This document shows, piece by piece, positions 6,667 through 63,677 of a stretch of 64,000 nt of DNA. How positions within the stretch are numbered: the stretch's first letter is position 1; each line of letters opens with the position of its first letter. The stretch comes from Minisyncoccota bacterium. Lineage in GTDB: Bacteria > Patescibacteriota > Minisyncoccia > Phycocordibacterales > UBA9973. Under the pieces are notes generated by a model, which had not been told where the DNA came from, ran no database searches, and saw only the letters and a list, made by a program, of their open reading frames with translations. Made by a program: the position numbers and the translations under genes. The stretch covers positions 20,903 through 84,902 of the forward strand of contig DASWWS010000002.1 of assembly GCA_036405895.1 (NCBI GenBank). The letters run 5' to 3'.

Positions 6667-6742
6667 GCCGCTTTAGCTCAGTTGGTAGAGCTACACTTTT
6701 GTAAAGTGAGGGTCGTCAGTTCGAGTCTGACAAGCGGCTCCA
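6667..6742 (+). tRNA. tRNA-Thr (anticodon TGT)
   Basis: hand-folded cloverleaf: acceptor GCCGCTT/AAGCGGC, D-stem GCTC/GAGC, anticodon loop TT-TGT-AA, 5-nt variable loop, T-arm GTCAG-TTCGAGT-CTGAC, encoded CCA; one A27-A43 mismatch. Confidence 0.85.
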
Positions 6743-6747
6743 ATAAT

Positions 6748-6778
6748 AAAAACCCCATTCCTAGGAATGGGGTTTTTA
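6748..6778 (+). terminator. rho-independent terminator after tRNA-Thr
   Basis: ccccattcc-tag-gaatgggg GC-rich hairpin flanked by A-run and T-run. Confidence 0.75.
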
Positions 6779-6862
6779 TTATTGGTCACCACATTTGTCA
6801 TCCTCTCGAACCGAAGACCTTGTTCCGAGGGTCTTTCGAGTCTGACTTCTAGCAACAACACT

Positions 6863-6881
6863 CAGAAGGACCGTCCTTCTG
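6863..6881. repeat. GGAC-N-GTCC hairpin repeat, arm type A (cagaaggac-c-gtccttctg)
   Basis: perfect 9+1+9 palindrome; identical copies at 43951, 44861, 57778. Confidence 0.85.
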
Positions 6882-6884
6882 AAC

Positions 6885-6909
6885 CTGAGCGGGGACGGTC
6901 CTTGCTAGG
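6885..6909. repeat. degenerate type B hairpin repeat (ctgagcggggacggtccttgctagg)
   Basis: right arm and core identical to type B (ggacggtccttgctagg); left arm mutated; sits 3 nt after type A copy as in the 43951-43996 pair. Confidence 0.6.
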
Positions 6910-6921
6910 TATTCTGCACGA

Positions 6922-8310
6922 CTATTTCACCTCCCCTATCAACACTTGGCACGAGCCGTGGTTTGCGATGGCGGTGAAGTTCACTTTTGGAGCAAGGGTA
7001 TCAAGAAGAAGTGCTGTCTCTGCGCCACAACTCCCTCCCGCCTGACACTGCAGTAAGTCGCATGAGTTGAAATAGAGGAAATCAATATCATTTTCATTAC
7101 TATCAAATGCAATAAGATATTTGGCAGTCGTTTCAAAAGAACCAATCAATCGGACTGGTGCAAACGCCGCAATTGAAGGGTGCGTGGAGAGCACGGTCGC
7201 ACCAGGATACTCTCTGAAGCTTTTGTAGTACTCCTCGAGGATTTTATTCTTACCAAAACCGATGTTTGCGTGGAGCATGAGGAAAAATCCCGCAACCGCA
7301 AGTATTGAAACCGCACTAACGAGGACGGTCCTCGTTAGTGTTTTGGTGCGAGAAAAGAGGGTGGCAATACCAAGACCTGCCAAGAGTGCCAGAGGGGCAA
7401 ATGCCGGCATAATATAGCGCGGTTCTTTATGCTCCTCCATGCTGAAATAAAGAAAGAATGACACTGCAACAAAAGCGAGTATTCCGATAACAATATTCTT
7501 TGTCTGCTCATTCTTTTTGTAAAAGAAAAACGGTATGAGAGAAAATATGACCAATGGTGCGCCCAATACTAGTACGCCGACATAAAACAATGCATGCTCC
7601 CTGTAGAGAAAGCTCACTTCGTGTGCAACCCGCGCGCCTTCAGTGATAGGCATCAGTGCCCCACCAAAGAGAAAGATATTGCTGATGAGGTATGTCGCGA
7701 GAATAAGGAGGGCCCCAAGCGAAAAATGCATTCCGCGTTTTATAACAACAGAAATATGCTTTGTTTCTATCCATGCCTGCACTGCAAGCGCGATGCCAAA
7801 GAGCGGGATTAACAATCCGTATGGAAAGCGAAGCAAGAGCATTACTGCCGTTACCACCCCTCCCCACACATACGCACGCTTAATAAAAAGAATATAAAAT
7901 ACTATGAAAAATCCGAGTACCCCAAATACTTCAGTGGTTGGAAGCGTGCTAAACGTATTAAACAGTGTGGCACTTGCAAGCACTACAGCTGCCCACCCGC
8001 CGGCAGTTGGCATATACTGCTCTCCTACTTTGTACGCCACATAGAGTGCACCAAAGGATGCAAAAATGGTGAGCCCTATTGCCCATGCAATGGGGATGCC
8101 GAACAATGCCCCAAATGAAAACAACAATGGCAGCAGTGGCGGGCGGTACACTTCCCAAAATCCTAAGCTTCCGAAACTTTCAATGTAGCGCCCCATGCCG
8201 ACATACACAGCGGCATCCCATGCAAACGCAGAGGGCCACAGTAGAAGGTACACAATGCGGCAAGCGAGAATGCCGAGCGCTATGACAAACAGCAGCCGCG
8301 ACAATTTCAT
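6922..8310 (-). CDS. GT39/ArnT-like (PMT_2 family) integral membrane glycosyltransferase
   Basis: 462 aa, about 11 predicted TM helices, N-terminal half resembles dolichyl-phosphate-mannose/undecaprenyl-sugar transferases; C-terminal soluble Cys-rich domain. Confidence 0.6.
   Translation of the reverse strand: MKLSRLLFVIALGILACRIVYLLLWPSAFAWDAAVYVGMGRYIESFGSLGFWEVYRPPLLPLLFSFGALFGIPIAWAIGLTIFASFGALYVAYKVGEQYMPTAGGWAAVVLASATLFNTFSTLPTTEVFGVLGFFIVFYILFIKRAYVWGGVVTAVMLLLRFPYGLLIPLFGIALAVQAWIETKHISVVIKRGMHFSLGALLILATYLISNIFLFGGALMPITEGARVAHEVSFLYREHALFYVGVLVLGAPLVIFSLIPFFFYKKNEQTKNIVIGILAFVAVSFFLYFSMEEHKEPRYIMPAFAPLALLAGLGIATLFSRTKTLTRTVLVSAVSILAVAGFFLMLHANIGFGKNKILEEYYKSFREYPGATVLSTHPSIAAFAPVRLIGSFETTAKYLIAFDSNENDIDFLYFNSCDLLQCQAGGSCGAETALLLDTLAPKVNFTAIANHGSCQVLIGEVK
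7314..7340. repeat. type C hairpin repeat (cactaacgaggac-g-gtcctcgttagtg) inserted in-frame inside the CDS 6922..8310
   Basis: perfect 13+1+13 palindrome; encodes ...TLTRTVLVS... in the host protein; same arm type as copy at 57745. Confidence 0.85.
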
Positions 8311-8311
8311 A

Positions 8312-8998
8312 TTAATTCTGAGGCGTTACAGGAGTCTTTGGAGCCGGATTCGTAATAGCACTTGGAAGGACAGCTGTGATTTCAGCAAGAGACTTAAAGC
8401 CGTTGACGGTCACGCCGTCTATCACAAGCGCCGGAAGCTGGTCGTTGATGCCATACACGGTCTTGAGCGTTTTAATCGTTGTCAGATCAAGATTTGAATC
8501 AAACGAATAGATGCGCACGTCGTCGTATTTGTTGCGAAGCGCGTCGAGGACATATCCTTGCTTCACGCAGTCCGGACAGACATTTTTGTCAGTATAAAAA
8601 TAGAGGATAGTGACCGGCAGGTTGTTGCAGCGCTCTGCAATTTGTTTTGAAATGACAAAGTCCTTCACCTCCAAAATAGAATACTGCTTTTTGAGTTCAA
8701 GCGAGTCCGCGGCTGATGTTCCGTTTTCTTCGGTGTAGGTAATGCGCTCGGCAAGATTTGCAATTTCTTTTGAAAGATAGGTATTGCCCACATCTTCGCA
8801 GGAAAGGTCTTTAATTAAGTCGAGCTGCGTTTCAGAAGAGAGGATGTCGGTTGCAACACGGTCCTGCAGGTCGCGAATATTCTGAAGCTTGCGCTCGGTG
8901 ATGTACGAGCTGAGAAATACCGCTCCTCCGAAAATGCCGGAAGTTAAGAGAAAGGCGAGAAGATATTTGCTCCATTTGTATCGGTTGAAAAAATTCAT
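8312..8998 (-). CDS. membrane-anchored thioredoxin-fold protein (CxxC)
   Basis: 228 aa, N-terminal TM, CPDC active-site-like motif in C-terminal thioredoxin-like region. Confidence 0.5.
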   Translation of the reverse strand: MNFFNRYKWSKYLLAFLLTSGIFGGAVFLSSYITERKLQNIRDLQDRVATDILSSETQLDLIKDLSCEDVGNTYLSKEIANLAERITYTEENGTSAADSLELKKQYSILEVKDFVISKQIAERCNNLPVTILYFYTDKNVCPDCVKQGYVLDALRNKYDDVRIYSFDSNLDLTTIKTLKTVYGINDQLPALVIDGVTVNGFKSLAEITAVLPSAITNPAPKTPVTPQN

Positions 8999-8999
8999 A

Positions 9000-10241
9000 T
9001 TATCGCCACTTTGGCTGACTAGAAGTAATACTATTCCACACGGCGCGCATCAGCCAAAACGGCGCAATGACGCTATAGATAAGCATAAAGGAAATAATGT
9101 GCCATGAGAGCTTTTGCTTTGCGATGCGTGAGCCGACAATCATAGAAATAAGTACGAGTGAGTAGAGCACGATGGTTACCATTCCCAATGCCTTGGTGTT
9201 GATATAGAGCCAGTCAAACTCAAACCGCGGAAGCGTGTTCGTAAAGCCGACAATGCTCCATCGCGTCACTGTTTCGGCAATGTATACGATAACATTGTAT
9301 GTTGCAGCAGCAAAAAGGTAGACGGTCGCAGTAATAGAGATTACGCCGGCCGGCACCGTAAAGAGAGAAAAGTTTCCGTACTTTGGGTTAAGGATAAGCC
9401 GGCGGTAGTCGATCGTATTTTGAATAAAGCCGTAGATCCAGCGCAATCGCTGAGTATAGAGCTTTTTCACGGTGTCGGGAGTGACAGTGTACACATACGC
9501 TGTCGGGCAGTGCTCGATTTTCATATGGTTTTCCTGCATGCGATACGCAATCTCCTGGTCTTCGGTGCCGTGCGCTTTTTTAAACTTTCCGATGCGCTCA
9601 AACACTTCGCGGCGAAATACTGAAAACGGCCCCGGCGTTACGTGGATAGCATTCATGAATGCCTGCATTTTTTTCAGGTACACGCTCATGTTGTACTCCA
9701 CCTTCTGCGCCCACTGCAAAATATTTTTCGGGCCGTGCACAATCAATGTTGGCGCCACTGCCATCACGTCGGGGCGGTTGTTGAAAATGCGCACCATATC
9801 AGTGAGTGCGTGAGGCGCGACAAATGAGTCCGCATCCAAACAACCAATAAGGTCCGTCGTTGCCTTATCAATGCCAAAATTCACTGCAACATGCTTCCCG
9901 CCGTTTTCCGTATGGTACAGAGAAATTTGCGGATGCCCCTGATATTTCTGCATCTCTTCCCACGTGTTGTCGGTCGAGCCGTCGTCGATGATGGTGATGA
10001 AAAGTTTTTCTTTCGGATAATCGAGCGCAAGCAAACTCTCAACAGTGCCGTGCACTGTTTTTGATTCGTTCCAGCACGGCATGATGATTGTCACGCTTGG
10101 AAAATGCGTAATAGGCAGGCGCTTGTCGCTGGTCTGTTCGCGAAGGTCCTTGCGGCGCTCAAAAAACGTAATAAGGATGAATACTTGGACATATACCGCC
10201 AAAAACGTAATGGTATACGTAGCAATCGAGGTGATCGACAT
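9000..10241 (-). CDS. processive family-2 glycosyltransferase (cellulose/chitin-synthase-like)
   Basis: 413 aa; GT-A motifs DDGSTD, DAD (LDADS) and QRLRW (QxxRW) plus C-terminal TM helices. Confidence 0.8.
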   Translation of the reverse strand: MSITSIATYTITFLAVYVQVFILITFFERRKDLREQTSDKRLPITHFPSVTIIMPCWNESKTVHGTVESLLALDYPKEKLFITIIDDGSTDNTWEEMQKYQGHPQISLYHTENGGKHVAVNFGIDKATTDLIGCLDADSFVAPHALTDMVRIFNNRPDVMAVAPTLIVHGPKNILQWAQKVEYNMSVYLKKMQAFMNAIHVTPGPFSVFRREVFERIGKFKKAHGTEDQEIAYRMQENHMKIEHCPTAYVYTVTPDTVKKLYTQRLRWIYGFIQNTIDYRRLILNPKYGNFSLFTVPAGVISITATVYLFAAATYNVIVYIAETVTRWSIVGFTNTLPRFEFDWLYINTKALGMVTIVLYSLVLISMIVGSRIAKQKLSWHIISFMLIYSVIAPFWLMRAVWNSITSSQPKWR

Positions 10242-10299
10242 AGTGGGGTAACTATAGCAAAAATAGGCTTATTTTTCAATTCCTTACGTAGATGAAGGA

Positions 10300-11073
10300 A
10301 TGTGCGATATACTTGTGTACATGGAACCACAAAACGAAACACCACAAACAAACAACCCTGAAACAGTATCAAAAAAACCTACATTATCGCTTCCAGCGGC
10401 AGTATTGACCGGTTTTGCACTCATTGCTCTTGCAATCCTTCTCACTGTCCCTGGCCTGAAAAAAGCTGCAGAAGCTCCGGCACCTGCAGCGGGCACCCCT
10501 TCAGAAATGCCTACAAGCATTCCCGCTGAACTTGCAAAAATTCAAGCGGACGACCATGTACAAGGTGACCGTAATGCCGCCGTCATCGTGATCGAATACT
10601 CCGACACAGACTGCCCGTTTTGCGCAAAATTCCACCCTACGCTTAAAAGCGTAGTTGCGGACTATCAGGGAAAAGTTGCATGGGTATACCGCCACTTCCC
10701 GCTCGATATGCACCCGAATGCATACACCGAAGCAATCGCGCTTGAGTGCGCGGCAAAGCTTGGCGGCAATGGCGCGTTTTGGGGGTATCTCGATGAAGTT
10801 GTAGATATCACTCTTGAACCTGACCCAGCAAGCAACAACAAGCTCACTGCAATCGCAACCGATATGGGCATCAATGCAGAGGCGTTCAAGCGATGCTTCG
10901 GCTCTCCTGACGTTATTGCAAGTGTTGACGCAAACATTGCGGAGGCAGGACAAATCGGCGCTCGCGGTACGCCATTCTCTATCGCTGTTAACCAAAAGAC
11001 TGGCAAGCAAGTCATCATCCCGGGCGCATACCCACTTGAGGAGGTAAAGAAAATGATCGACAGCATTCTCTAA
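10300..11073 (+). CDS. DsbA-family thiol:disulfide oxidoreductase (membrane-anchored)
   Basis: CPFC active site, downstream cis-Pro region; TM anchor after Pro/Thr-rich N-terminus; alternative ATG at 10321. Confidence 0.7.
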   Translation: MCDILVYMEPQNETPQTNNPETVSKKPTLSLPAAVLTGFALIALAILLTVPGLKKAAEAPAPAAGTPSEMPTSIPAELAKIQADDHVQGDRNAAVIVIEYSDTDCPFCAKFHPTLKSVVADYQGKVAWVYRHFPLDMHPNAYTEAIALECAAKLGGNGAFWGYLDEVVDITLEPDPASNNKLTAIATDMGINAEAFKRCFGSPDVIASVDANIAEAGQIGARGTPFSIAVNQKTGKQVIIPGAYPLEEVKKMIDSIL

Positions 11074-43893: not shown

Positions 43894-43950
43894 ATAGCCT
43901 ATTGTAGTAAAAAGCCCCTCAGAATACTAGCAATCCCCCCTAAAAGAATT

Positions 43951-43969
43951 CAGAAGGACCGTCCTTCTG
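43951..43969. repeat. type A GGAC-N-GTCC hairpin repeat
   Basis: cagaaggaccgtccttctg, identical to 6863 copy. Confidence 0.85.
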
Positions 43970-43971
43970 AA

Positions 43972-43996
43972 CCTAGCAATGACCGTCCTTGCTAGG
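43972..43996. repeat. type B hairpin repeat (cctagcaatgaccgtccttgctagg), one arm mismatch; contains stop codon of 43992..44807
   Basis: 12+1+12 palindrome with single T/C mismatch; TAG stop (43992-43994 rc) lies in right arm. Confidence 0.8.
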
Positions 43997-44807
43997 ATTT
44001 TATTTGATAGGTATTCCCCTTCTTTTCGATGAGATGTTCGGCTATAAGCTGGGCGATGGCGGTGTTGTAGCGAGGAGTATCAAATTGTACTTTCTTGCGG
44101 AGAATAGAAACGGTGTGCGGACCACTCGCAAGCACTTTGATAATTGCGCCGCGCACTTCGCGGACCGAGCCCTTGAGCGGGCTTTGCTTTTTGTACTGCG
44201 CAGAGTTGCGGTGAATCTTCACTCCACTCGTTTTGAGAAAGCTTCCGTAGTCCATAAGTGCCCAATACCACTCTCGAGGATTTTTTCTATCAAGCGTTTC
44301 TTCAATGATCGGCATTAATACTTTGTCATCCACCAACTCAAACGACTCAGGAAAGAAATGATGTATATACACCGTGCGGATATTTGTTTCAATAAACACG
44401 TCCGGCATATTGTATGCAAAGGTAGCTATTGCGCGCGCAGTGTAATGCCCAACTCCCGGAAGCGTTTCAAGCTCTGAAACTGTTTTGGGAAATTTCCCTT
44501 TATAGTGGCGCAACACCGTTTCCGCCATTGCTTTCAAAAATTTTGCACGGCGGTTGTAGCCGAGGCCCGTCCATACTTTCAATACGTCGGCCAGCGACGC
44601 GGCAGCGAGTGCTTTTGCATTGGGGAACAATTTCAAAAACTCTTTGTATTTTTCCTTCACGCGTGCAACTTGGGTCTGTTGCAGCATTACTTCGGAAACG
44701 GCTATCTTATATGGGTCGGTCGTTTGCCGCCATGCCAAATCATGCCTCCCTTCCGCTTTATAGTAGGCATATACGATTTTTACGAAGGCTTTCTCGTTCG
44801 CATTCAT
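43992..44807 (-). CDS. HhH-GPD base-excision DNA glycosylase (MutY/Nth superfamily), flanked by hairpin-repeat pairs
   Basis: helix-hairpin-helix LPGVGHYTARAI with Gly/Pro-rich loop and downstream catalytic Asp region; no obvious C-terminal 4Cys Fe-S cluster; ATG 44805-44807 (track ORF starts at GTG 44834). Confidence 0.7.
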   Translation of the reverse strand: MNANEKAFVKIVYAYYKAEGRHDLAWRQTTDPYKIAVSEVMLQQTQVARVKEKYKEFLKLFPNAKALAAASLADVLKVWTGLGYNRRAKFLKAMAETVLRHYKGKFPKTVSELETLPGVGHYTARAIATFAYNMPDVFIETNIRTVYIHHFFPESFELVDDKVLMPIIEETLDRKNPREWYWALMDYGSFLKTSGVKIHRNSAQYKKQSPLKGSVREVRGAIIKVLASGPHTVSILRKKVQFDTPRYNTAIAQLIAEHLIEKKGNTYQIKS

Positions 44808-44833
44808 ATGGGGTACTGTATCACAAAAAAGCA

Positions 44834-44857
44834 CCTAGCAAGGACGGTCCTTACTAG
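44834..44857. repeat. type B hairpin repeat (cctagcaaggacggtccttactag), right arm 1 mismatch
   Basis: in 5' leader of MutY-like gene. Confidence 0.75.
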
Positions 44858-44860
44858 TTT

Positions 44861-44879
44861 CAGAAGGACCGTCCTTCTG
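44861..44879. repeat. type A hairpin repeat
   Basis: cagaaggaccgtccttctg. Confidence 0.85.
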
Positions 44880-44934
44880 AGAATTTCCGAGAAAAGAGTT
44901 TAGTGTTCGGTGTACGGTGTACACCGTGGGATAC

Positions 44935-56509: not shown

Positions 56510-57658
56510 ATGACTACAAAAACACTCCTCACAACATTTCTCTCTGCATCATTTGTTCTCGGTATTACAGCTGGACCGCTCTACGGAGCAACCCTTACGA
56601 CTGAACTCAACACCCTTGTTGACCAGCAAAAAATTGCGCGCGCAAAACAATCTGTATGTATTGAACAAAATGGTGTTGATACCCTCTCCTATAATGCCCA
56701 GACTCGTATTATCCCGGCATCTGTGTCCAAGCTCTACACCTTTGACTTCGCGCTTGCAACACTGCCAGAAGATTTTCGCTACACAACGAATTTTTATGTG
56801 CAGGGCACGACGCTCTATATCAATGGCGCGGGGGACCCGCACTTTGTGGCTGAGCACCTTACAAAAGTACTCACGACCGTACAATCTGAAAAGAATATCG
56901 TGATAGATCATATTGTTTTCACTCCAGGCTTTTATTTCAATTGGGAAATGGCGCCAGCTGCTGTACAGACAGCGCTTGCAAATGCGGTGCGCAACACTCC
57001 GGGCATGCCTGTTTCTCCAAACGTGCGCATCACGCTTTCTCTTGTACCGTACAACGGAAAAGGCACTTCCTACCAATTCAGTTCAGCTCCCCTGCCCGCC
57101 CTCTTGAAACAAATCAACAACTACTCAACCAATATCTCGGCCGACATTCTCCTTTCTCGCTTGGGCGGACCGGTCGCCTTTTCCGAGTACATGAAAAAGA
57201 CTTATGATGCGGGCCCTGAAACAGTGTCCTTTATGACAGGCTCCGGACTCTATGGCAATTACACGACGTGCGCTCTGACGCTTCGCGTTATCAAACATTT
57301 GGAATCCCAGCTCAAAGAGCGTGACCTCGAAGTTACTGACGTCCTGTCCATGCCGAAAGTTGATCCGGGTGTAATCGAAAAGCGCGCAATCAATATGGAC
57401 GGAAAAAATGCGATTGTCGCAAAGAGTGGGTTCGTCAATTACCATCACGCACTTGCGGGGGTTATTAATACAGCAGACAAACCGGCATACTTTGCAATCT
57501 TCACCAACTACAACTTTATGGCCCAGACAAGTGCGGTAAAGACAATGGTGGATCAATACACGGAGAAAATCCTCGCGCACTTTAGCCCAACGCTTGAGTC
57601 ATTTGACTACGCTCCGGACCCGAGCATCTTTGAGGATGTCCTCATAAAAAAACTGTAA
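56510..57658 (+). CDS. D-alanyl-D-alanine carboxypeptidase/endopeptidase (PBP4/S13-like)
   Basis: signal/TM, SVSKL (SxxK) active site, SGL (SxN-like) and KSG motifs. Confidence 0.7.
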   Translation: MTTKTLLTTFLSASFVLGITAGPLYGATLTTELNTLVDQQKIARAKQSVCIEQNGVDTLSYNAQTRIIPASVSKLYTFDFALATLPEDFRYTTNFYVQGTTLYINGAGDPHFVAEHLTKVLTTVQSEKNIVIDHIVFTPGFYFNWEMAPAAVQTALANAVRNTPGMPVSPNVRITLSLVPYNGKGTSYQFSSAPLPALLKQINNYSTNISADILLSRLGGPVAFSEYMKKTYDAGPETVSFMTGSGLYGNYTTCALTLRVIKHLESQLKERDLEVTDVLSMPKVDPGVIEKRAINMDGKNAIVAKSGFVNYHHALAGVINTADKPAYFAIFTNYNFMAQTSAVKTMVDQYTEKILAHFSPTLESFDYAPDPSIFEDVLIKKL

Positions 57659-57661
57659 TAC

Positions 57662-57694
57662 CTTACCTAGCAAGGACCGTCCTTGCTAGGTAAG
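57662..57694. repeat. type B hairpin repeat, extended perfect 16+1+16 palindrome (cttacctagcaaggac-c-gtccttgctaggtaag)
   Basis: starts 4 nt after dacB-like stop. Confidence 0.9.
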
Positions 57695-57711
57695 ATTTAG
57701 CGTTGCAAAAG

Positions 57712-57740
57712 AAAATCCCGAGCAGTTGCTCGGGATTTTC
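57712..57740. terminator. bidirectional rho-independent terminator between convergent genes
   Basis: gaaaa-tcccgagcagttgctcggga-ttttc. Confidence 0.7.
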
Positions 57741-57744
57741 TACC

Positions 57745-57775
57745 TTACCTAACGAGGACCGTCCTCGTTAGGTAA
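57745..57775. repeat. type C hairpin repeat, 15+1+15 palindrome (ttacctaacgaggac-c-gtcctcgttaggtaa)
   Basis: shares outer flank ccttacct with the adjacent type B copy. Confidence 0.9.
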
Positions 57776-57777
57776 TT

Positions 57778-57798
57778 TCAGAAGGACGGTCCTTCTGA
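57778..57798. repeat. type A hairpin repeat (tcagaaggac-g-gtccttctga) abutting stop codon of 57799..58779
   Basis: 10+1+10 palindrome. Confidence 0.9.
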
Positions 57799-58779
57799 TT
57801 ATGGGTGCGCTACAACGTAAGCCTTGGACTTCGGTCCGTAGACACCGTCGGGGGTAAGACCGGCTGATGCCTGGAATTCAATCAATGCCTTTTTAGTCAT
57901 TGGGCCAAACGCTCCGTCAGCGGTAATGCTTGCTCCTGTACCCACACCTTTTTTGATAAGGTATGCCTGGAGTGCGACAACCTCGCTTCCGCGAGAGCCT
58001 ACCATCAGTGTTCCTGTAGAAGATACTCCGGAAGAAGTATTGCTTGAAGTCGAAGCAGGGACGGTGCCAAGCGCATCAATGATTGCGTCAGGAATATCTA
58101 TTCCTTGAATGCGCGCAGAAACAAATTCTGAACGAAAATTTTTTACCAATAACTCTGCAAGTTCTTCCTCGTCATCGTGGTTGTCGAGAATCTCTTCGAG
58201 GTACTCCATCTTTTCCTCAGGAGTAAATACTTTTGTAAAGCGCGGATAGGGGTCGGTCGTGTCATTGTCTTCATCATAGAGCTCAAAGTGAAGATGCGGC
58301 GCGCTTGCAACGGCATTTCCGGTGTGTCCCACATAGCCGACAATATCGCCCACTTTCAATACATCCCCTTCGTCAATATCTGCAATTTCGCTTAAGTGCA
58401 TGTAGACAAAGCGCTCTCCTCCGGGAGCTGCTGTTTGCACGTAGTTCCCCGCTCCTGTCCAAACCCCCATGCCGGTAACAACGGCTTCTGTAGGAGAAAC
58501 AATTGGCGTGCCTTCGGGCGCCATGATATCAAGTCCAATGTGGCTGTGGCCAGCACGCGGGTCCCCGTAGTTTTTTGTCAGATTGCGGAGTGCTACACCA
58601 AAGAGTACAGGTATAGGCAAATCCTCCACCTGGTCGTCATCAAGATTGTTAATTTTAGTCGAAAGCCCGCTACTGCTTCGGCGGCGTGTCTGCGCTTCAG
58701 CAACAGCTGCACCTCCTAAGAGAGAACCTATAATAATAAAGCCCAATACGTACGCGAACATTTTTTTATTCATATGCAT
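57799..58779 (-). CDS. M23-family peptidoglycan metalloendopeptidase with C-terminal PG_binding_1 domain
   Basis: HxxxD (GHSHIGLD) and HLHFE zinc-ligand motifs; C-terminal ...ALQAYLIKKGV...DGAFGPMTKKALIEFQ peptidoglycan-binding repeat. Confidence 0.8.
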   Translation of the reverse strand: MHMNKKMFAYVLGFIIIGSLLGGAAVAEAQTRRRSSSGLSTKINNLDDDQVEDLPIPVLFGVALRNLTKNYGDPRAGHSHIGLDIMAPEGTPIVSPTEAVVTGMGVWTGAGNYVQTAAPGGERFVYMHLSEIADIDEGDVLKVGDIVGYVGHTGNAVASAPHLHFELYDEDNDTTDPYPRFTKVFTPEEKMEYLEEILDNHDDEEELAELLVKNFRSEFVSARIQGIDIPDAIIDALGTVPASTSSNTSSGVSSTGTLMVGSRGSEVVALQAYLIKKGVGTGASITADGAFGPMTKKALIEFQASAGLTPDGVYGPKSKAYVVAHP

Positions 58780-60379: not shown

Positions 60380-61242
60380 TGTGCGATACTGAGGGGATGA
60401 ATTGTATTACTCTCCTTCGCATCAGCCGTCCGCGCTTTTGGCTCTATGAAGCCGCAACGTTTGCACTCATTGGCGCAGTCGCCGGAGCCGCCGATACAGC
60501 ATTTCTTTCAGATTGGCGTTTTTGGACATTTACTCTTTATTTCCTTATTCCCGCCAACCTGCTGATATACGGCGTCAATGATATCTACGACTACGAGACA
60601 GATCGACTCAATCCCAAAAAAGGATTATACGAAGTACTCGTGCATCCGGATATGCACAGCACGCTATGGAAATGGATCATCTTTACCACGCTCCCGTTTC
60701 TCTTTTTTATTCCCTCTTCATTCCCCCTTATTGCATCATTTGCTGCATTTCTTTTTTTTGCACTAATGTATTCAGCAAAACCAATCCGCGCAAAAGCAAT
60801 TCCAATTCTTGATTCGCTCTTTTCAGCAGGGCATTATGTTGCAACGGGGGTCTTTGGATACTACCTTGCAGGCGGCACGGTATTTCCGTGGATTGGAGTA
60901 ATCGCGGGCATGTCGTGGGCAATTGCCATGCATGCCGTGAGTGCCGTTCCGGATATTGAAGCCGATACTCGAGCAGGCCTTTCTACCATTGCAACGCTTT
61001 TGGGCAAGCGCGGCACGCTTTCACTGTGCGTGATATTGTACGGAGTTGCCGCAGTTATTACCCGCGATATCCTCCCGCTTGCAAGCATGGTGGGTGGATT
61101 TGCTTTTATCTATGCAATGCACCGAATGTTCCGCGCACGCACACAAGCCGCACTCTTTCGCGAATACACCTACTTCCCGCTACTCAATACAACAGTCGGA
61201 GCACTCGTATCGATTACGCTGATGCTGAGCCTTTTCTCTTAA
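60379..61242 (+). CDS. UbiA-family prenyltransferase (lycopene elongase CrtEb/LyeJ-like candidate)
   Basis: NDIYDYETD (NDxxDxxxD) and second Asp-rich region DIEAD; 8-9 TM; adjacent to crtI/crtB. Confidence 0.6.
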   Translation: MCDTEGMNCITLLRISRPRFWLYEAATFALIGAVAGAADTAFLSDWRFWTFTLYFLIPANLLIYGVNDIYDYETDRLNPKKGLYEVLVHPDMHSTLWKWIIFTTLPFLFFIPSSFPLIASFAAFLFFALMYSAKPIRAKAIPILDSLFSAGHYVATGVFGYYLAGGTVFPWIGVIAGMSWAIAMHAVSAVPDIEADTRAGLSTIATLLGKRGTLSLCVILYGVAAVITRDILPLASMVGGFAFIYAMHRMFRARTQAALFREYTYFPLLNTTVGALVSITLMLSLFS

Positions 61243-62750
61243 ATCTTCTCCAGTGGAAACGGGTCGGCAATTCCTTCGATGCGCTTGTACGCAAGCTCAG
61301 CCGAAATAAGGCAGATAGGCATGCCGATTCCAGGATTGGTGCCGGCTCCCACAAAATACAAGTTCGGGATCTTTGGATGAATATTGTTTGGGCGGAAAAT
61401 CGCCGTCTGCCCGAGAGTATGAGCCAGGCCAAGCGCTGTCCCCTTAAAGGCATTGTAGTCCGCAATAAAGTCTTTGATGCAGTATGAGCGCTCGACAACA
61501 ATGCGGCTCGCAAGGTCCGGTGCCTCAAACGCTGTGGCAAGTTCAGCTATCACCTTGTCGCGATACTCTTTCACAAATGCTTCAGTATATTCAAGCCCAG
61601 GCGCTATGGGAACCAGTACAAAAAGGTTCTCGCACCCCTCTGGTGCAACAGTGCTGTCGGTTTTTGACGGTGCGCAGACATACAGTGATGGGTCAGTCGG
61701 CCAGGATTTTGTTTTTCCGAATATTTGAGAAAAGCTTTCTTCCCAGTGCTCCGAGAAAATAAGGTTGTGATGTCGCGCCTTTGGAAGCGTGCCTGAAACG
61801 CCGAGGTATAAAATAAACGCGCTTGGCGCAAGCGTGCGCTTGTTCCATGAGCGGTCTGAATACTGCTGGTATTCTCCTCCCAACAGCACGCGATCAGTGT
61901 GCACAATGTCCGCATTGGAAACAACAATATCCGCGCGGTGTTCGGTGCCGTTTGCAAGAAGCACTCCCTGCGCGCGGCCACCCTCTACGATGATTTTTTC
62001 AACCGGCGCATTGGTGATGACGCTCACTCCGTATTTTTTCGCAATTGACTCAAGTGCCCGTGGGACCGAAACAATACCGCCTTTAGGGTACCAAATACCC
62101 AGCCCGAAATCGACATAGTTCATCATGCTGTATATTCCCGGCGTGTCGCCCGGTGCGGTGCCCAAGAGCACGGTCTGATACTGCATCACCTTTCGCAGAA
62201 TCTCGCTCTTGAACAACTTTTCAATGATTGCTTTTTGCTTCTTAAACAGCGGAAGCTTCGCGCCAAGCTTCATTACCCGCTTGTTGAAAAAATCAAAAAT
62301 AGAGTCGTAGTTTTTGTACATAAACTCGTGTTTTGCGATTTCGTACTGCTCTTTGGTGGTTGCCAAGAATTCCTCGAGCACTTTTCCGGAACCGGATTCA
62401 AATGACTCAAACGTCGCTTTGTTCTTTTCGATGTCACCGTAAAAATCGTGGTGCGTGCCGTCGCTTTTCAAAAAAATGCGGTATGAAGGAGAGAGCTTTT
62501 CAAGGGAGAGGTATTCTTCGATATGTTCACCCATCATAGAGAAATAGTGCTCGAACACGTCCGGCATCATGTACCAGCTCGGCCCCATATCAAAGGTATA
62601 GCCGTCTTTCTGCCACAATCGGGCACGGCCTCCAATTGATTCGTTTTTCTCGATAACTGTCACGGCATACCCGCGCTTTGCAAGCATGGCTGCAAGCGAA
62701 AGTCCGCCAAGGCCGGCTCCGATGATTAGTGCGCTTTTTTTGTGTTCCAT
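61239..62750 (-). CDS. crtI: phytoene desaturase-family FAD oxidoreductase (CrtI/CrtN-like)
   Basis: N-terminal dinucleotide fold ALIIGAGLGGLSLAAMLAKRGYAVTVIEKNESIGGRA; length 503 aa typical. Confidence 0.8.
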   Translation of the reverse strand: MEHKKSALIIGAGLGGLSLAAMLAKRGYAVTVIEKNESIGGRARLWQKDGYTFDMGPSWYMMPDVFEHYFSMMGEHIEEYLSLEKLSPSYRIFLKSDGTHHDFYGDIEKNKATFESFESGSGKVLEEFLATTKEQYEIAKHEFMYKNYDSIFDFFNKRVMKLGAKLPLFKKQKAIIEKLFKSEILRKVMQYQTVLLGTAPGDTPGIYSMMNYVDFGLGIWYPKGGIVSVPRALESIAKKYGVSVITNAPVEKIIVEGGRAQGVLLANGTEHRADIVVSNADIVHTDRVLLGGEYQQYSDRSWNKRTLAPSAFILYLGVSGTLPKARHHNLIFSEHWEESFSQIFGKTKSWPTDPSLYVCAPSKTDSTVAPEGCENLFVLVPIAPGLEYTEAFVKEYRDKVIAELATAFEAPDLASRIVVERSYCIKDFIADYNAFKGTALGLAHTLGQTAIFRPNNIHPKIPNLYFVGAGTNPGIGMPICLISAELAYKRIEGIADPFPLEKI

Positions 62751-63628
62751 AGTGTTGTGGTGATTATTGAAAATTTGCGCACAGTACTGGTGCGGACCCG
62801 CCCCTTAAAACTATCGTACCCTCGCATTTCGATCTCGTCGAGAATTGCCGAGTAGAGCGCGCTTGCAACCGCCACGGCGCGATGCCCGCGCGGATGCAAC
62901 AGTGCAATCCCTTTGTCGCTCTCTCGAAAAAGCGCGCGGGCACGCCCCATTTGAAATTGCATGAGCGCCTTCCACGCATCGTCTGTGCGCTTCTCGGCAA
63001 TATGCATCTCTGTTACGCCATAGCGCTCCATGTCTTCGCGCGGCAAATAGATGCGGTTGCGAAGCATATAGTCTTCATCAATATCGCGCAGAAAGTTTGT
63101 CAGCTGCATGGCGTCTCCCAATGCTTTAGCGTACGGGAGCGCGCCTTCCTCAAAGCCAATGAGGTGCGTCATCATCAGCCCTACTGCAGCAGCGGATCCG
63201 TACATATACTCTTCGAGCGCCTCGTATGTTTCGTAGCGCTCTACCGTAAGGTCCATTGCCATGCTTTTAAGAAAGGCACGAGAGTATTCAAATGGAATAG
63301 TATATTGGTCGTGCACACTTTTAGCAGCGATCATAATCGGGTTTGCGCCGGCCGGCAGTTCGCCCGCCACAAGCGCTTCCCAGTCTGCAGTCCATTTCGC
63401 AAGTTCAGCTGCTCCCTTTGCATGGTCAGGCTCGGTGTCTACCATTTCGTCCGGAATCCGAACAAAGGCATACAGTATCCACGTTGCCTCCCGAAGCGCG
63501 CGAGGAAAAAACCAGGTGGCGCGATAATAGCTCGTGCCGTAAAAACGGGTAATGTCGCGCGCTTTTGTAATGGCTTCTTTTGTAATCATGGATGACAGCA
63601 CGCGAAGGTAACGGAGCCATTGTAGCAT
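62726..63628 (-). CDS. crtB: phytoene/squalene synthase-family protein (CrtB-like)
   Basis: isoprenoid synthase fold with Asp-rich motifs (IPDEMVDTEP; DIDEDY); overlaps crtI. Confidence 0.75.
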   Translation of the reverse strand: MLQWLRYLRVLSSMITKEAITKARDITRFYGTSYYRATWFFPRALREATWILYAFVRIPDEMVDTEPDHAKGAAELAKWTADWEALVAGELPAGANPIMIAAKSVHDQYTIPFEYSRAFLKSMAMDLTVERYETYEALEEYMYGSAAAVGLMMTHLIGFEEGALPYAKALGDAMQLTNFLRDIDEDYMLRNRIYLPREDMERYGVTEMHIAEKRTDDAWKALMQFQMGRARALFRESDKGIALLHPRGHRAVAVASALYSAILDEIEMRGYDSFKGRVRTSTVRKFSIITTTLWNTKKAH

Positions 63629-63646: not shown

Positions 63647-63677
63647 TAAACTAGCAAGGACCGTCCTTGCTAGTTTA
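63647..63677. repeat. type B hairpin repeat, perfect 15+1+15 palindrome (taaactagcaaggac-c-gtccttgctagttta), abutting stop of 63678..63941
   Basis: read directly. Confidence 0.9.

Follow-up and report, generated by a model that had tools for sequence, protein, structure and literature searches.

Short palindromes dispersed through bacterial genomes, among them the repetitive extragenic palindromic (REP) sequences, the Correia elements and the Rickettsia palindromic elements (RPEs), are generally thought of as inserting. REP sequences are species-specific, and RPEs, at ~100-150 bp, add tens of residues to their host proteins as true insertions. The highly iterated palindrome HIP1 (GCGATCGC) of cyanobacteria, which is 8 nt long and hyper-abundant, is reported to spread by substitution and not by insertion. 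The DNA uptake sequences (DUS) of Neisseria and the uptake signal sequences (USS) of Pasteurellaceae are single 10-12-mers present at about one per kb. Here we analyze a 64,000-nt stretch of a Minisyncoccota genome (assembly GCA_036405895.1, contig DASWWS010000002.1; the window), in which a perfect 27-nt palindrome lies inside a gene for a membrane glycosyltransferase. The palindrome is a member of a dispersed repeat family found in Patescibacteria, and its long-type coding copies overlay existing residues instead of adding new ones.

At positions 7314-7340 of the window the forward strand reads CACTAACGAGGAC-G-GTCCTCGTTAGTG, a perfect 13+1+13 palindrome, and the minus-strand open reading frame (ORF) 6922..8310, which encodes 462 aa, stays open across it. 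In 100 dinucleotide-preserving shuffles there was no match to the 27-nt palindrome with three or fewer mismatches, and 23 of its 27 nt (CTAACGAGGAC-S-GTCCTCGTTAG, S being C or G) are found again in an intergenic copy at 57749-57771. The original prediction had described a real, frame-preserving palindrome that is not due to chance and belongs to an intergenic repeat family, and on these points it is borne out. The palindrome lies one base off the codon boundaries of the nonapeptide TLTRTVLVS (residues 324-332, nt 7315-7341). The codons of the nonapeptide include the rarest in the window for Leu (CTA, 4%), Arg (AGG, 3%), Thr (ACG) and Val (GTC); AGG, which accounts for 21 of 783 Arg codons, encodes Arg327 in the left arm. 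Their joint probability, taken as the product of window codon frequencies, is ~2e-8, and so the nucleotide sequence is dictated by the palindrome and not by translation.

The original prediction held that the palindrome had been inserted in frame and added nine residues to the protein in a loop or membrane-border region. Neither the length of the protein nor its alignment agrees with this. The four closest homologues (54, 48, 37, and 33% identity) align EKARIFFFV, VIVRSALAV, RIFFLV, and RLSFFA with TLTRTVLVS, and Arg327 is invariant among these four and the window protein. The span between the HKExRY and ExYYKxF anchors is 72 aa in the window protein, compared with 73, 73, 69, and 69 in the homologues; if the nonapeptide is removed, the span falls to 63 aa and a 10-column gap is forced. 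A slightly shorter span, measured across 67 relatives, ranges from 60 to 81 aa with a mode of 71, and is 69 aa in the window protein. In the AlphaFold model the nonapeptide forms the first nine residues of the last transmembrane (TM) helix (324-347), directly after a 2-residue turn, and this helix of 24 residues would be only 15 long without it. The orthologous DNA in the two syntenic loci found, L001 and L002, is not palindromic. An alignment of orthologues, where the original prediction expected a nine-residue indel, contains none: homologous, although not identical, residues are encoded by non-palindromic DNA, which in substance speaks against an insertion. The palindrome therefore occupies pre-existing codon positions, and a net insertion of nine residues is unsupported.

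In the window the family's core, GGACNGTCC, was counted 10 times where 0.41 would be expected, each time with C or G in the middle. Three consensus forms were used for scoring, which gave 11 members with a GGAC-S-GTCC core, eight of them perfect and without a tail of decayed copies. All are intergenic except the copy in the glycosyltransferase gene (10 of 11). The short type, with TCAGA flanks (TCAGAAGGAC-S-GTCCTTCTGA; called S in Table 1), starts at 6861, 43949, 44859, and 57777. In the long type the core AGGAC-S-GTCCT is flanked by CTAGCA or CTAACG; its L1 form (CTAGCAAGGAC-S-GTCCTTGCTAG) starts at 6886 (degenerate), 43973, 44835, 57667, and 63651, and its L2 dialect comprises the copy at 57749 and the coding copy, where the shared 23 nt start at 7316. 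The full 27-nt frame of the coding palindrome, CACTAG..CTAGTG, is also present in L037, L051, and L055.

The intergenic copies in the window usually form long plus short pairs beside gene ends, where they sit between stop codons and ordinary A-run/stem/T-run terminators (6740-6785, 57710-57741). Two of them, 6861-6883 and 6886-6908, lie in a stretch of ~73 nt that the syntenic locus L001 lacks: the distance from the glycosyltransferase stop codon to GTCAGACTCG is 82 nt in the window and 9 nt in L001. The intergenic copies thus behave as true indels. The earlier comparison with REP- or Correia-style insertion consequently applies to this intergenic cluster and to a short-type copy in a variable loop of TsaD described below, but not to the palindrome in the glycosyltransferase gene; that this palindrome is a copy of a dispersed repeat tolerated in frame stands, while its entry by mobile-element insertion does not.

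Stop codons (TAA or TAG) close two of the palindrome's three reading frames, and every coding copy accordingly reads L-[A/T]-R-T-V-L-[A/V]-[S/R]. All five long-type coding copies that were tested, the glycosyltransferase included, overlay existing residues without an insertion of 8-9 residues. In the TsaD protein of L019, NLTRTVLVR aligns without gaps to KLAEMMKKR of the E. coli protein, and in an AlkD-like protein of RAAC4, LARTVLAR aligns without gaps to LISAYIPK. The TsaC protein of L051 has only 3-4 extra residues nearby. In the protein family of L021, GALARTVLAS aligns with GA[IV]AR[SK]V..G, in which the Arg is invariant; the length is 54 aa, compared with 51-53 aa in all but one of 22 relatives, and the patch is identical to orthologue DNA at 15 of 30 positions, against 48 of 60 in the upstream flank. 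No PDB homologues were found for the L021 and L054 proteins.

The clearest view of exchange in place comes from TsaD. Among orthologues with 74-88% identity, a single codon register is occupied by four states of equal length: long type, short type, decayed long type, and no palindrome (Table 1). Identity of the patch is uncoupled from that of its flanks (24/24 against 80-87%, 21/24 against 67-68%, and 11/24 against 78-80%). Conversion of the long into the short type takes matched changes on the two arms and therefore requires a template. The short-type state in L060 is encoded in the gene for HEY0980148.1, whose accession lies 35 numbers from that of the glycosyltransferase (HEY0980183.1), and this TsaD is therefore attributed to the same metagenome-assembled genome (MAG) as the window. 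Another TsaD protein, P0274, is a mere start-codon variant of P0007.

TsaD also carries, in L019 and L060, a short-type copy in a loop of widely varying length that is ~8 residues longer than in relatives; a true insertion is plausible there. This loop copy, together with ~25 nt of native coding sequence, is ~85% identical to the intergenic stretch 44859-44905 of the window, where the short-type copy is followed by ~25 nt (GAGAATTTCCGAGAAAAGAGTTTAGTG) matching the native TsaD coding sequence of the same MAG (GAAAATTCCGAGAAGAGAGTGTACGTG in L060). The presence of a TsaD coding flank beside the window copy indicates that copying carried flanking DNA along, which fits the transfer of a templated patch and not an element with fixed ends. 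In L058 (1501-2802) and L061 (1501-2784) the variable loop of TsaD holds longer inserts (peptides such as AGLAEPTARETEDVEN), whose DNA has AGGAC-(9 nt)-GTCCT stems; these are possibly another branch of the family.

Beyond the window, the exact pattern CTARCRAGGACSGTCCTYGYTAG was found at 16 loci in 12 species-representative assemblies with GC contents of 29-47%. Each of those with a named group belongs to the Patescibacteria (RAAC4_OD1, Nomurabacteria, Zambryskibacteria, Minisyncoccia, Paceibacterota, and one Saccharibacteria bin). The exact 23-nt palindrome is present in a further 35 metagenome loci. The distribution is sporadic and the copy number low, the complete 694-kb RAAC4 genome having two exact copies. 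That genomes so unlike one another hold an identical sequence points either to horizontal spread or to strong constraint. Of the 56 distinct copies counted over all loci, 48 are intergenic and ~8 (~14%) lie in long ORFs. Single arms occur almost only beside full palindromes. In L013 (1260-1335) and L038 (1140-1230), tandem runs of single arms, for example GGTCCTCGCTAGT three times, stand directly beside a full palindrome, a sign that slippage or template switching may have taken place at the hairpin. In two metagenome contigs whose GC content of 59-66% is unlike that of Patescibacteria, the 23-nt palindrome forms the apex of perfect palindromes of 51-57 nt, both with arms extended by GCAGCG..CGCTGC (L027, 1182-1238; L029, 843-893). 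A literature search returned no description of such a repeat in Patescibacteria, nor the palindrome sequence in a relevant context.

The two arms of the palindrome covary. In 58 distinct copies, each of the four variable core pairs has undergone 6-12 two-sided changes and 0-2 one-sided changes; none of 500 shuffles reached the observed covariation score, and G-U pairs are almost absent. In more than half of the copies, pairing runs past the 11-nt core into copy-specific sequence. C is the centre base at 34 of 62 sites and G at 27. Watson-Crick palindromy is kept at the level of DNA and is not that of an RNA-type stem.

Our preferred reading, which we consider probable, is that the coding palindrome is a copy of a DNA-level cassette that was written over about nine existing codons by templated short-patch replacement and then filtered by selection. 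It is built on membership in the family, the lack of net insertion, the exchange of cassettes in place in TsaD, the carry-over of flanking sequence between two loci, and the covariation of the arms. For the molecular mechanism, the donor, and neutrality at the protein level, we infer the following. A strand carrying a family copy, from the cell's own genome or taken up from outside, would anneal at a partly similar site and be copied in by ectopic gene conversion, template switching, or double illegitimate recombination of the short-patch kind (SPDIR), a mechanism described in Acinetobacter (bioRxiv 10.1101/2023.11.22.568220). Selection would then remove all but the open frame and keep those sites where L-[A/T]-R-T-V-L fits. 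The peptide fits a helix; in the glycosyltransferase its Arg lines up with the juxtamembrane Arg that the four closest homologues have in common, and the membrane helix begins next to it. The effect on the protein is probably neutral; the stable hairpin may act on the mRNA, and the motif itself may confer a benefit or be driven. More broadly, and only tentatively, Patescibacteria may share a horizontally circulating, transposase-less cassette (AGGAC-S-GTCCT) that spreads by templated short-patch replacement, its donor perhaps fed by DNA uptake and favored by uptake or repair bias, and that overwrites partly similar stretches of essential genes in place, with variants swappable at a given site.

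Several points weigh against overwriting by a neutral cassette. The TsaD palindrome is more conserved than its flanks, a hint that selection or drive would fit better than a purely neutral passenger. No enzyme or pathway has been identified, and short-patch recombination is documented in Acinetobacter and not in Patescibacteria. For the glycosyltransferase, the nearest homologue is only 54% identical, so that the sequence before the event is not reconstructable; the identity of the patch (10-11 of 24) is indistinguishable from that of the flanks (41-66%) at such divergence; and similarity to the copy at 57749 ends at the 23-nt core, so that no donor can be named. An insertion with a compensating deletion of ~10 codons could also account for this one locus, although it is unparsimonious and is contradicted by the four other coding cases.

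Among the alternatives, insertion of a 27-nt mobile hairpin that adds nine residues, tolerated in a loop or membrane-border region, would draw on the divisibility of 27 by three, on the insertions elsewhere in the family (the 6861-6908 cluster and the longer TsaD loop), and on the few residues by which the juxtamembrane stretch differs among homologues. We regard it as improbable, given the lack of any surplus in either anchor span, the 10-column gap forced by deleting the peptide, the alignment of Arg327 with the Arg of the four closest homologues, the truncated helix that would otherwise result, and the absence of an 8-9-residue insertion in the other four long-type coding copies. A functional DNA motif favored in its own right, either a binding site for a dimeric protein or a sequence resembling an uptake signal that spreads by biased uptake and recombination, with its coding copies driven or selected, is unlikely but has more to recommend it. 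The identical 23-mer in the 12 assemblies of differing GC content, those with a named group being Patescibacteria throughout, and its absence from 2.9 million viral contigs would suit such a motif, as would a central G:C pair in either orientation, which is expected for symmetric recognition of double-stranded DNA. The conservation of the TsaD palindrome above its flanks and the perfection of 8 of the 11 window copies, with no decayed tail, are in keeping with it. Both Neisseria DUS and Haemophilus USS are known to have copies in coding sequence that arose in place, as well as inverted pairs close to gene ends, which counts in its favor. So does the natural competence shown in Saccharibacteria (PMC10633639). 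The density is low, however, with 11 copies in the 64-kb window and two exact copies in the 694-kb RAAC4 genome, and three dialects with compensating arm changes coexist within one genome. Extension of the palindromy into copy-specific flanks indicates structure or arm templating and not a fixed protein site, single arms are confined almost entirely to the vicinity of full palindromes, and a literature search on Patescibacteria, Saccharibacteria, and natural transformation gave no mention of an uptake sequence.

We also consider improbable a role as an RNA hairpin, such as a REP-like stabilizer of 3' ends, an aid to termination, or a processing site, with the coding copy acting as an internal regulatory hairpin. 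The predicted mRNA fold of the coding palindrome is stable (12-bp stem, triloop, -19.3 kcal/mol, z = -5.96), the copies are mostly intergenic, their nearest gene end is 3' in 27 and 5' in 19 cases (18 and 8 within 60 nt), and the window hairpins lie between stop codons and canonical terminators, all of which would suit an RNA role. Against this, nearly all arm changes are two-sided and Watson-Crick with hardly any G-U, which is unusual for stems selected as RNA; no strand preference is seen for the centre base on the sequenced strand; and the length-neutral entry into the gene is left unexplained. No Rfam family matches the hairpins: in the window only tRNA-Thr reaches threshold, and all matches to the hairpins are far below the gathering thresholds. 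A terminator scan called only the short-type copy at 6860-6884, with a weak T-rich tail, and not the coding copy, which is followed by no U-tract. The chance that the palindrome is a coincidence of coding, or an assembly or adaptor artefact, is negligible, even though L-T-R-T-V-L-V-S is a plausible helix start. Coincidence is ruled out by the shuffles, the enrichment of the core in the window, the 23-nt identity with the intergenic copy, and the rare codons. As to an artefact, four independent Logan contigs (L003-L006), which represent contigs from 11 sample records, hold the gene and palindrome in identical form; the reading frame is unbroken, confidence in the structure model is high, an orthologue holds a decayed copy, the arms are short and finite, and no contig ends at the palindromes.

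Three further candidates were set aside. An origin in phages or plasmids was ruled out, as neither palindrome type had a match among the viral contigs and the extended GC-rich form had none among plasmids. A neighboring mobile-element gene was sought, and no gene family recurs beside the copies in ~50 loci; a scan of 20 window ORFs gave no transposase domain, and the neighbors in the window are housekeeping genes. The C or G centre always creates one GGWCC, which raised the idea of a restriction site, yet GGWCC occurs 52 times in the window against 58 expected and is neither avoided nor enriched. The positions of the features are collected in Table 1.

Table 1. Members of the palindrome family and associated features in the window, with the four states of the TsaD codon register in other loci
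Feature	Position or locus	Strand	Remarks
Canonical bidirectional A-run/stem/T-run terminator, not a family member	6740..6785	.	After tRNA-Thr; conserved in L001
S palindrome TCAGAAGGAC-C-GTCCTTCTGA	6861..6883	.	3' region of glycosyltransferase gene; terminator-like on minus strand
Degenerate L1 copy	6886..6908	.	One arm intact, the other with 4 mismatches
GT-C-fold membrane glycosyltransferase, 462 aa (HEY0980183.1)	6922..8310	-	C-terminal domain with 4 conserved Cys
27-nt palindrome, long type, L2 dialect	7314..7340	.	Inside glycosyltransferase coding sequence
Codons T324-S332: ACA CTA ACG AGG ACC GTC CTC GTT AGT	7315..7341	-	Start of last TM helix H324-347
S copy and L1 copy (1 mismatch)	43949..43995	.	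Directly downstream of HhH-GPD gene 43992..44834(-)
L1 copy (1 mismatch) and S copy	44835..44905	.	Followed by ~25 nt that match the MAG's own native TsaD coding sequence
L1 palindrome, 16-nt arms	57662..57694	.	4 nt past stop codon of 56510..57658(+)
L2 palindrome (15-nt arms; same 23-nt core as coding copy) and S palindrome	57745..57798	.	Adjoins stop codon of 57799..58779(-)
L1 palindrome, 15-nt arms	63647..63677	.	
TsaD register, long type CTAACGAGGACGGTCCTCGTTAG	L019, L058		
TsaD register, short type CTCAGAAGGACCGTCCTTCTGAG	L060		Peptide ELRRTVLLS
TsaD register, decayed long type TTAACGAGAACTGTCCTCGTTAG	L059		
TsaD register, no palindrome CTCACCAATACCCTGCAGACTCGC	L061		Peptide LTNTLQTR

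The ORF that hosts the palindrome is identical to NCBI protein HEY0980183.1 (VGE18_02120), from a 'Candidatus Paceibacterota' MAG. The original prediction had called it GT39-like, a label that is too specific. The window protein has no Pfam match above threshold, two of five members of its family match PF03901 (Glyco_transf_22), and the family profile matches ArnT (E = 2e-4). An AlphaFold model built on the 67 relatives has a pLDDT of 94.5 and a pTM of 0.93, and a Foldseek search with it gave 18 PDB matches at E <= 1e-3, all of them GT-C enzymes with TM-scores of up to 0.62. ArnT, ALG12/ALG9, and the oligosaccharyltransferase subunits AglB/STT3/PglB are the top structural matches, and Pmt4, which belongs to GT39, is only the 13th. 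On the modeled structure we assign the protein to the GT-C fold glycosyltransferases and not specifically to GT39. No orthologue with more than 54% identity was found among 5.8 billion proteins, and an exhaustive profile search gave distant relatives only; a search for loci syntenic with the window likewise returned none besides L001 and L002.

Other features of the window were noted alongside. In a conserved gene cluster (8312-11073), also present in L001 and L002, the GT-C glycosyltransferase is accompanied by an unnamed protein of 228 aa, a GT2 glycosyltransferase, and a DsbA/thioredoxin-like protein. On either side of the HhH-GPD base-excision-repair gene (43992..44834, minus strand) lies a long plus short pair (43945-44880). 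A sequence at 6800-6845, GAGGGTCTTTCGAGTCTGAC, conserved in the syntenic relative (L001, 4290-4330), resembles the 3' half of the adjacent tRNA-Thr (6667-6742), with an alignment score that was reached by 1 of 500 shuffles; it may be the remnant of a tRNA fragment or att site, or a small structured element. On the minus strand at 61239-63628, a gene for a phytoene-desaturase-like flavoprotein (PF01593) adjoins one for a squalene/phytoene synthase (PF00494); to our knowledge, genes of the isoprenoid/carotenoid type are not usually expected in a reduced Paceibacterota genome.

The family is a dispersed bacterial palindrome whose unusual property would be the templated overwriting of coding sequence. 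Length-neutral replacement of coding sequence by a perfect palindrome of 23-31 nt was found in at least five proteins, TsaD and TsaC, both essential, among them, and at one TsaD site closely related genomes carry different variants of the family or none. If the broader, tentative reading is correct, the repeat would spread by a route other than transposition and would repeatedly give rise to clustered amino acid changes. If general, it would provide a compact natural example of templated patch replacement that acts repeatedly on genes, and a means of tracing DNA flow among bacteria that are ultra-small and for the most part uncultivated. Some relatives are now cultivable and transformable, which makes uptake bias, protein binding, and patch recombination directly testable. 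For annotation, a repeat inside a gene should not be taken as an insertion before the length of the orthologues has been checked.

In several respects the family resembles the REP sequences, their composites the bacterial interspersed mosaic elements (BIMEs), and the REPIN-RAYT system of REP doublets and REP-associated tyrosine transposases: short (20-40 nt) dispersed palindromes, mostly extragenic, clustered in twos and threes, with compensating stem changes and a placement in transcribed 3' regions between stop codon and terminator. REP is described (PMC3733652) as a palindrome that is imperfect and has, beyond the stem on one side, a conserved GTAG or CGTC tag. The Patescibacteria palindrome, in contrast, has perfect arms with CTAG at both ends and no GTAG tag, and CGTC occurs only across its centre. 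No associated RAYT gene was seen, with no gene family recurring beside the copies in ~50 loci and the scan for transposase domains covering 20 window ORFs. The identical 23-mer spans distant lineages (12 assemblies), unlike the REP sequences, which are vertically inherited and confined to a species or genus, and ~14% of copies are inside genes, where they overlay coding sequence. Like the RPEs, the family places palindromic repeats inside protein genes with the frame kept, but the coding copy is only 27 nt and adds no residues. It also differs from the Correia type of miniature inverted-repeat transposable element, in which terminal inverted repeats enclose ~100-150 bp and a target-site duplication is present, as it is a 23-37-nt palindrome with a single central base and has no internal segment. 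Nor does the coding copy qualify as an intrinsic terminator, as it was not called as a GC-rich stem followed by a U-tract.

Systems that alter coding sequence in place are closer in this one property. The family shares with DUS and USS a clade-wide motif, in-place coding copies (all five of the long type) in frames that encode tolerable peptides, inverted pairs that form hairpins near gene ends, and a host group that includes naturally competent members. It differs from them in that the unit is an obligate palindrome of 23-37 nt with a 1-nt centre, sparse, and present in several dialects. With HIP1 it shares the presence of a phylum-wide palindrome in coding and non-coding DNA, but at 23 nt or more it is far too long for plausible stepwise substitution without a template. 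In mode of change the family resembles SPDIR, in which single strands of ectopic origin pair at microhomologies and a short patch is exchanged, leaving clusters of changes while the length alters little or not at all, in agreement with the discordance between patch and flank and the carry-over of flanking sequence seen for the Patescibacteria palindrome. Whereas SPDIR in Acinetobacter is described as a rare, sequence-unspecific mutation process, here one specific palindrome family serves as donor time and again, with an outcome that lasts across lineages.

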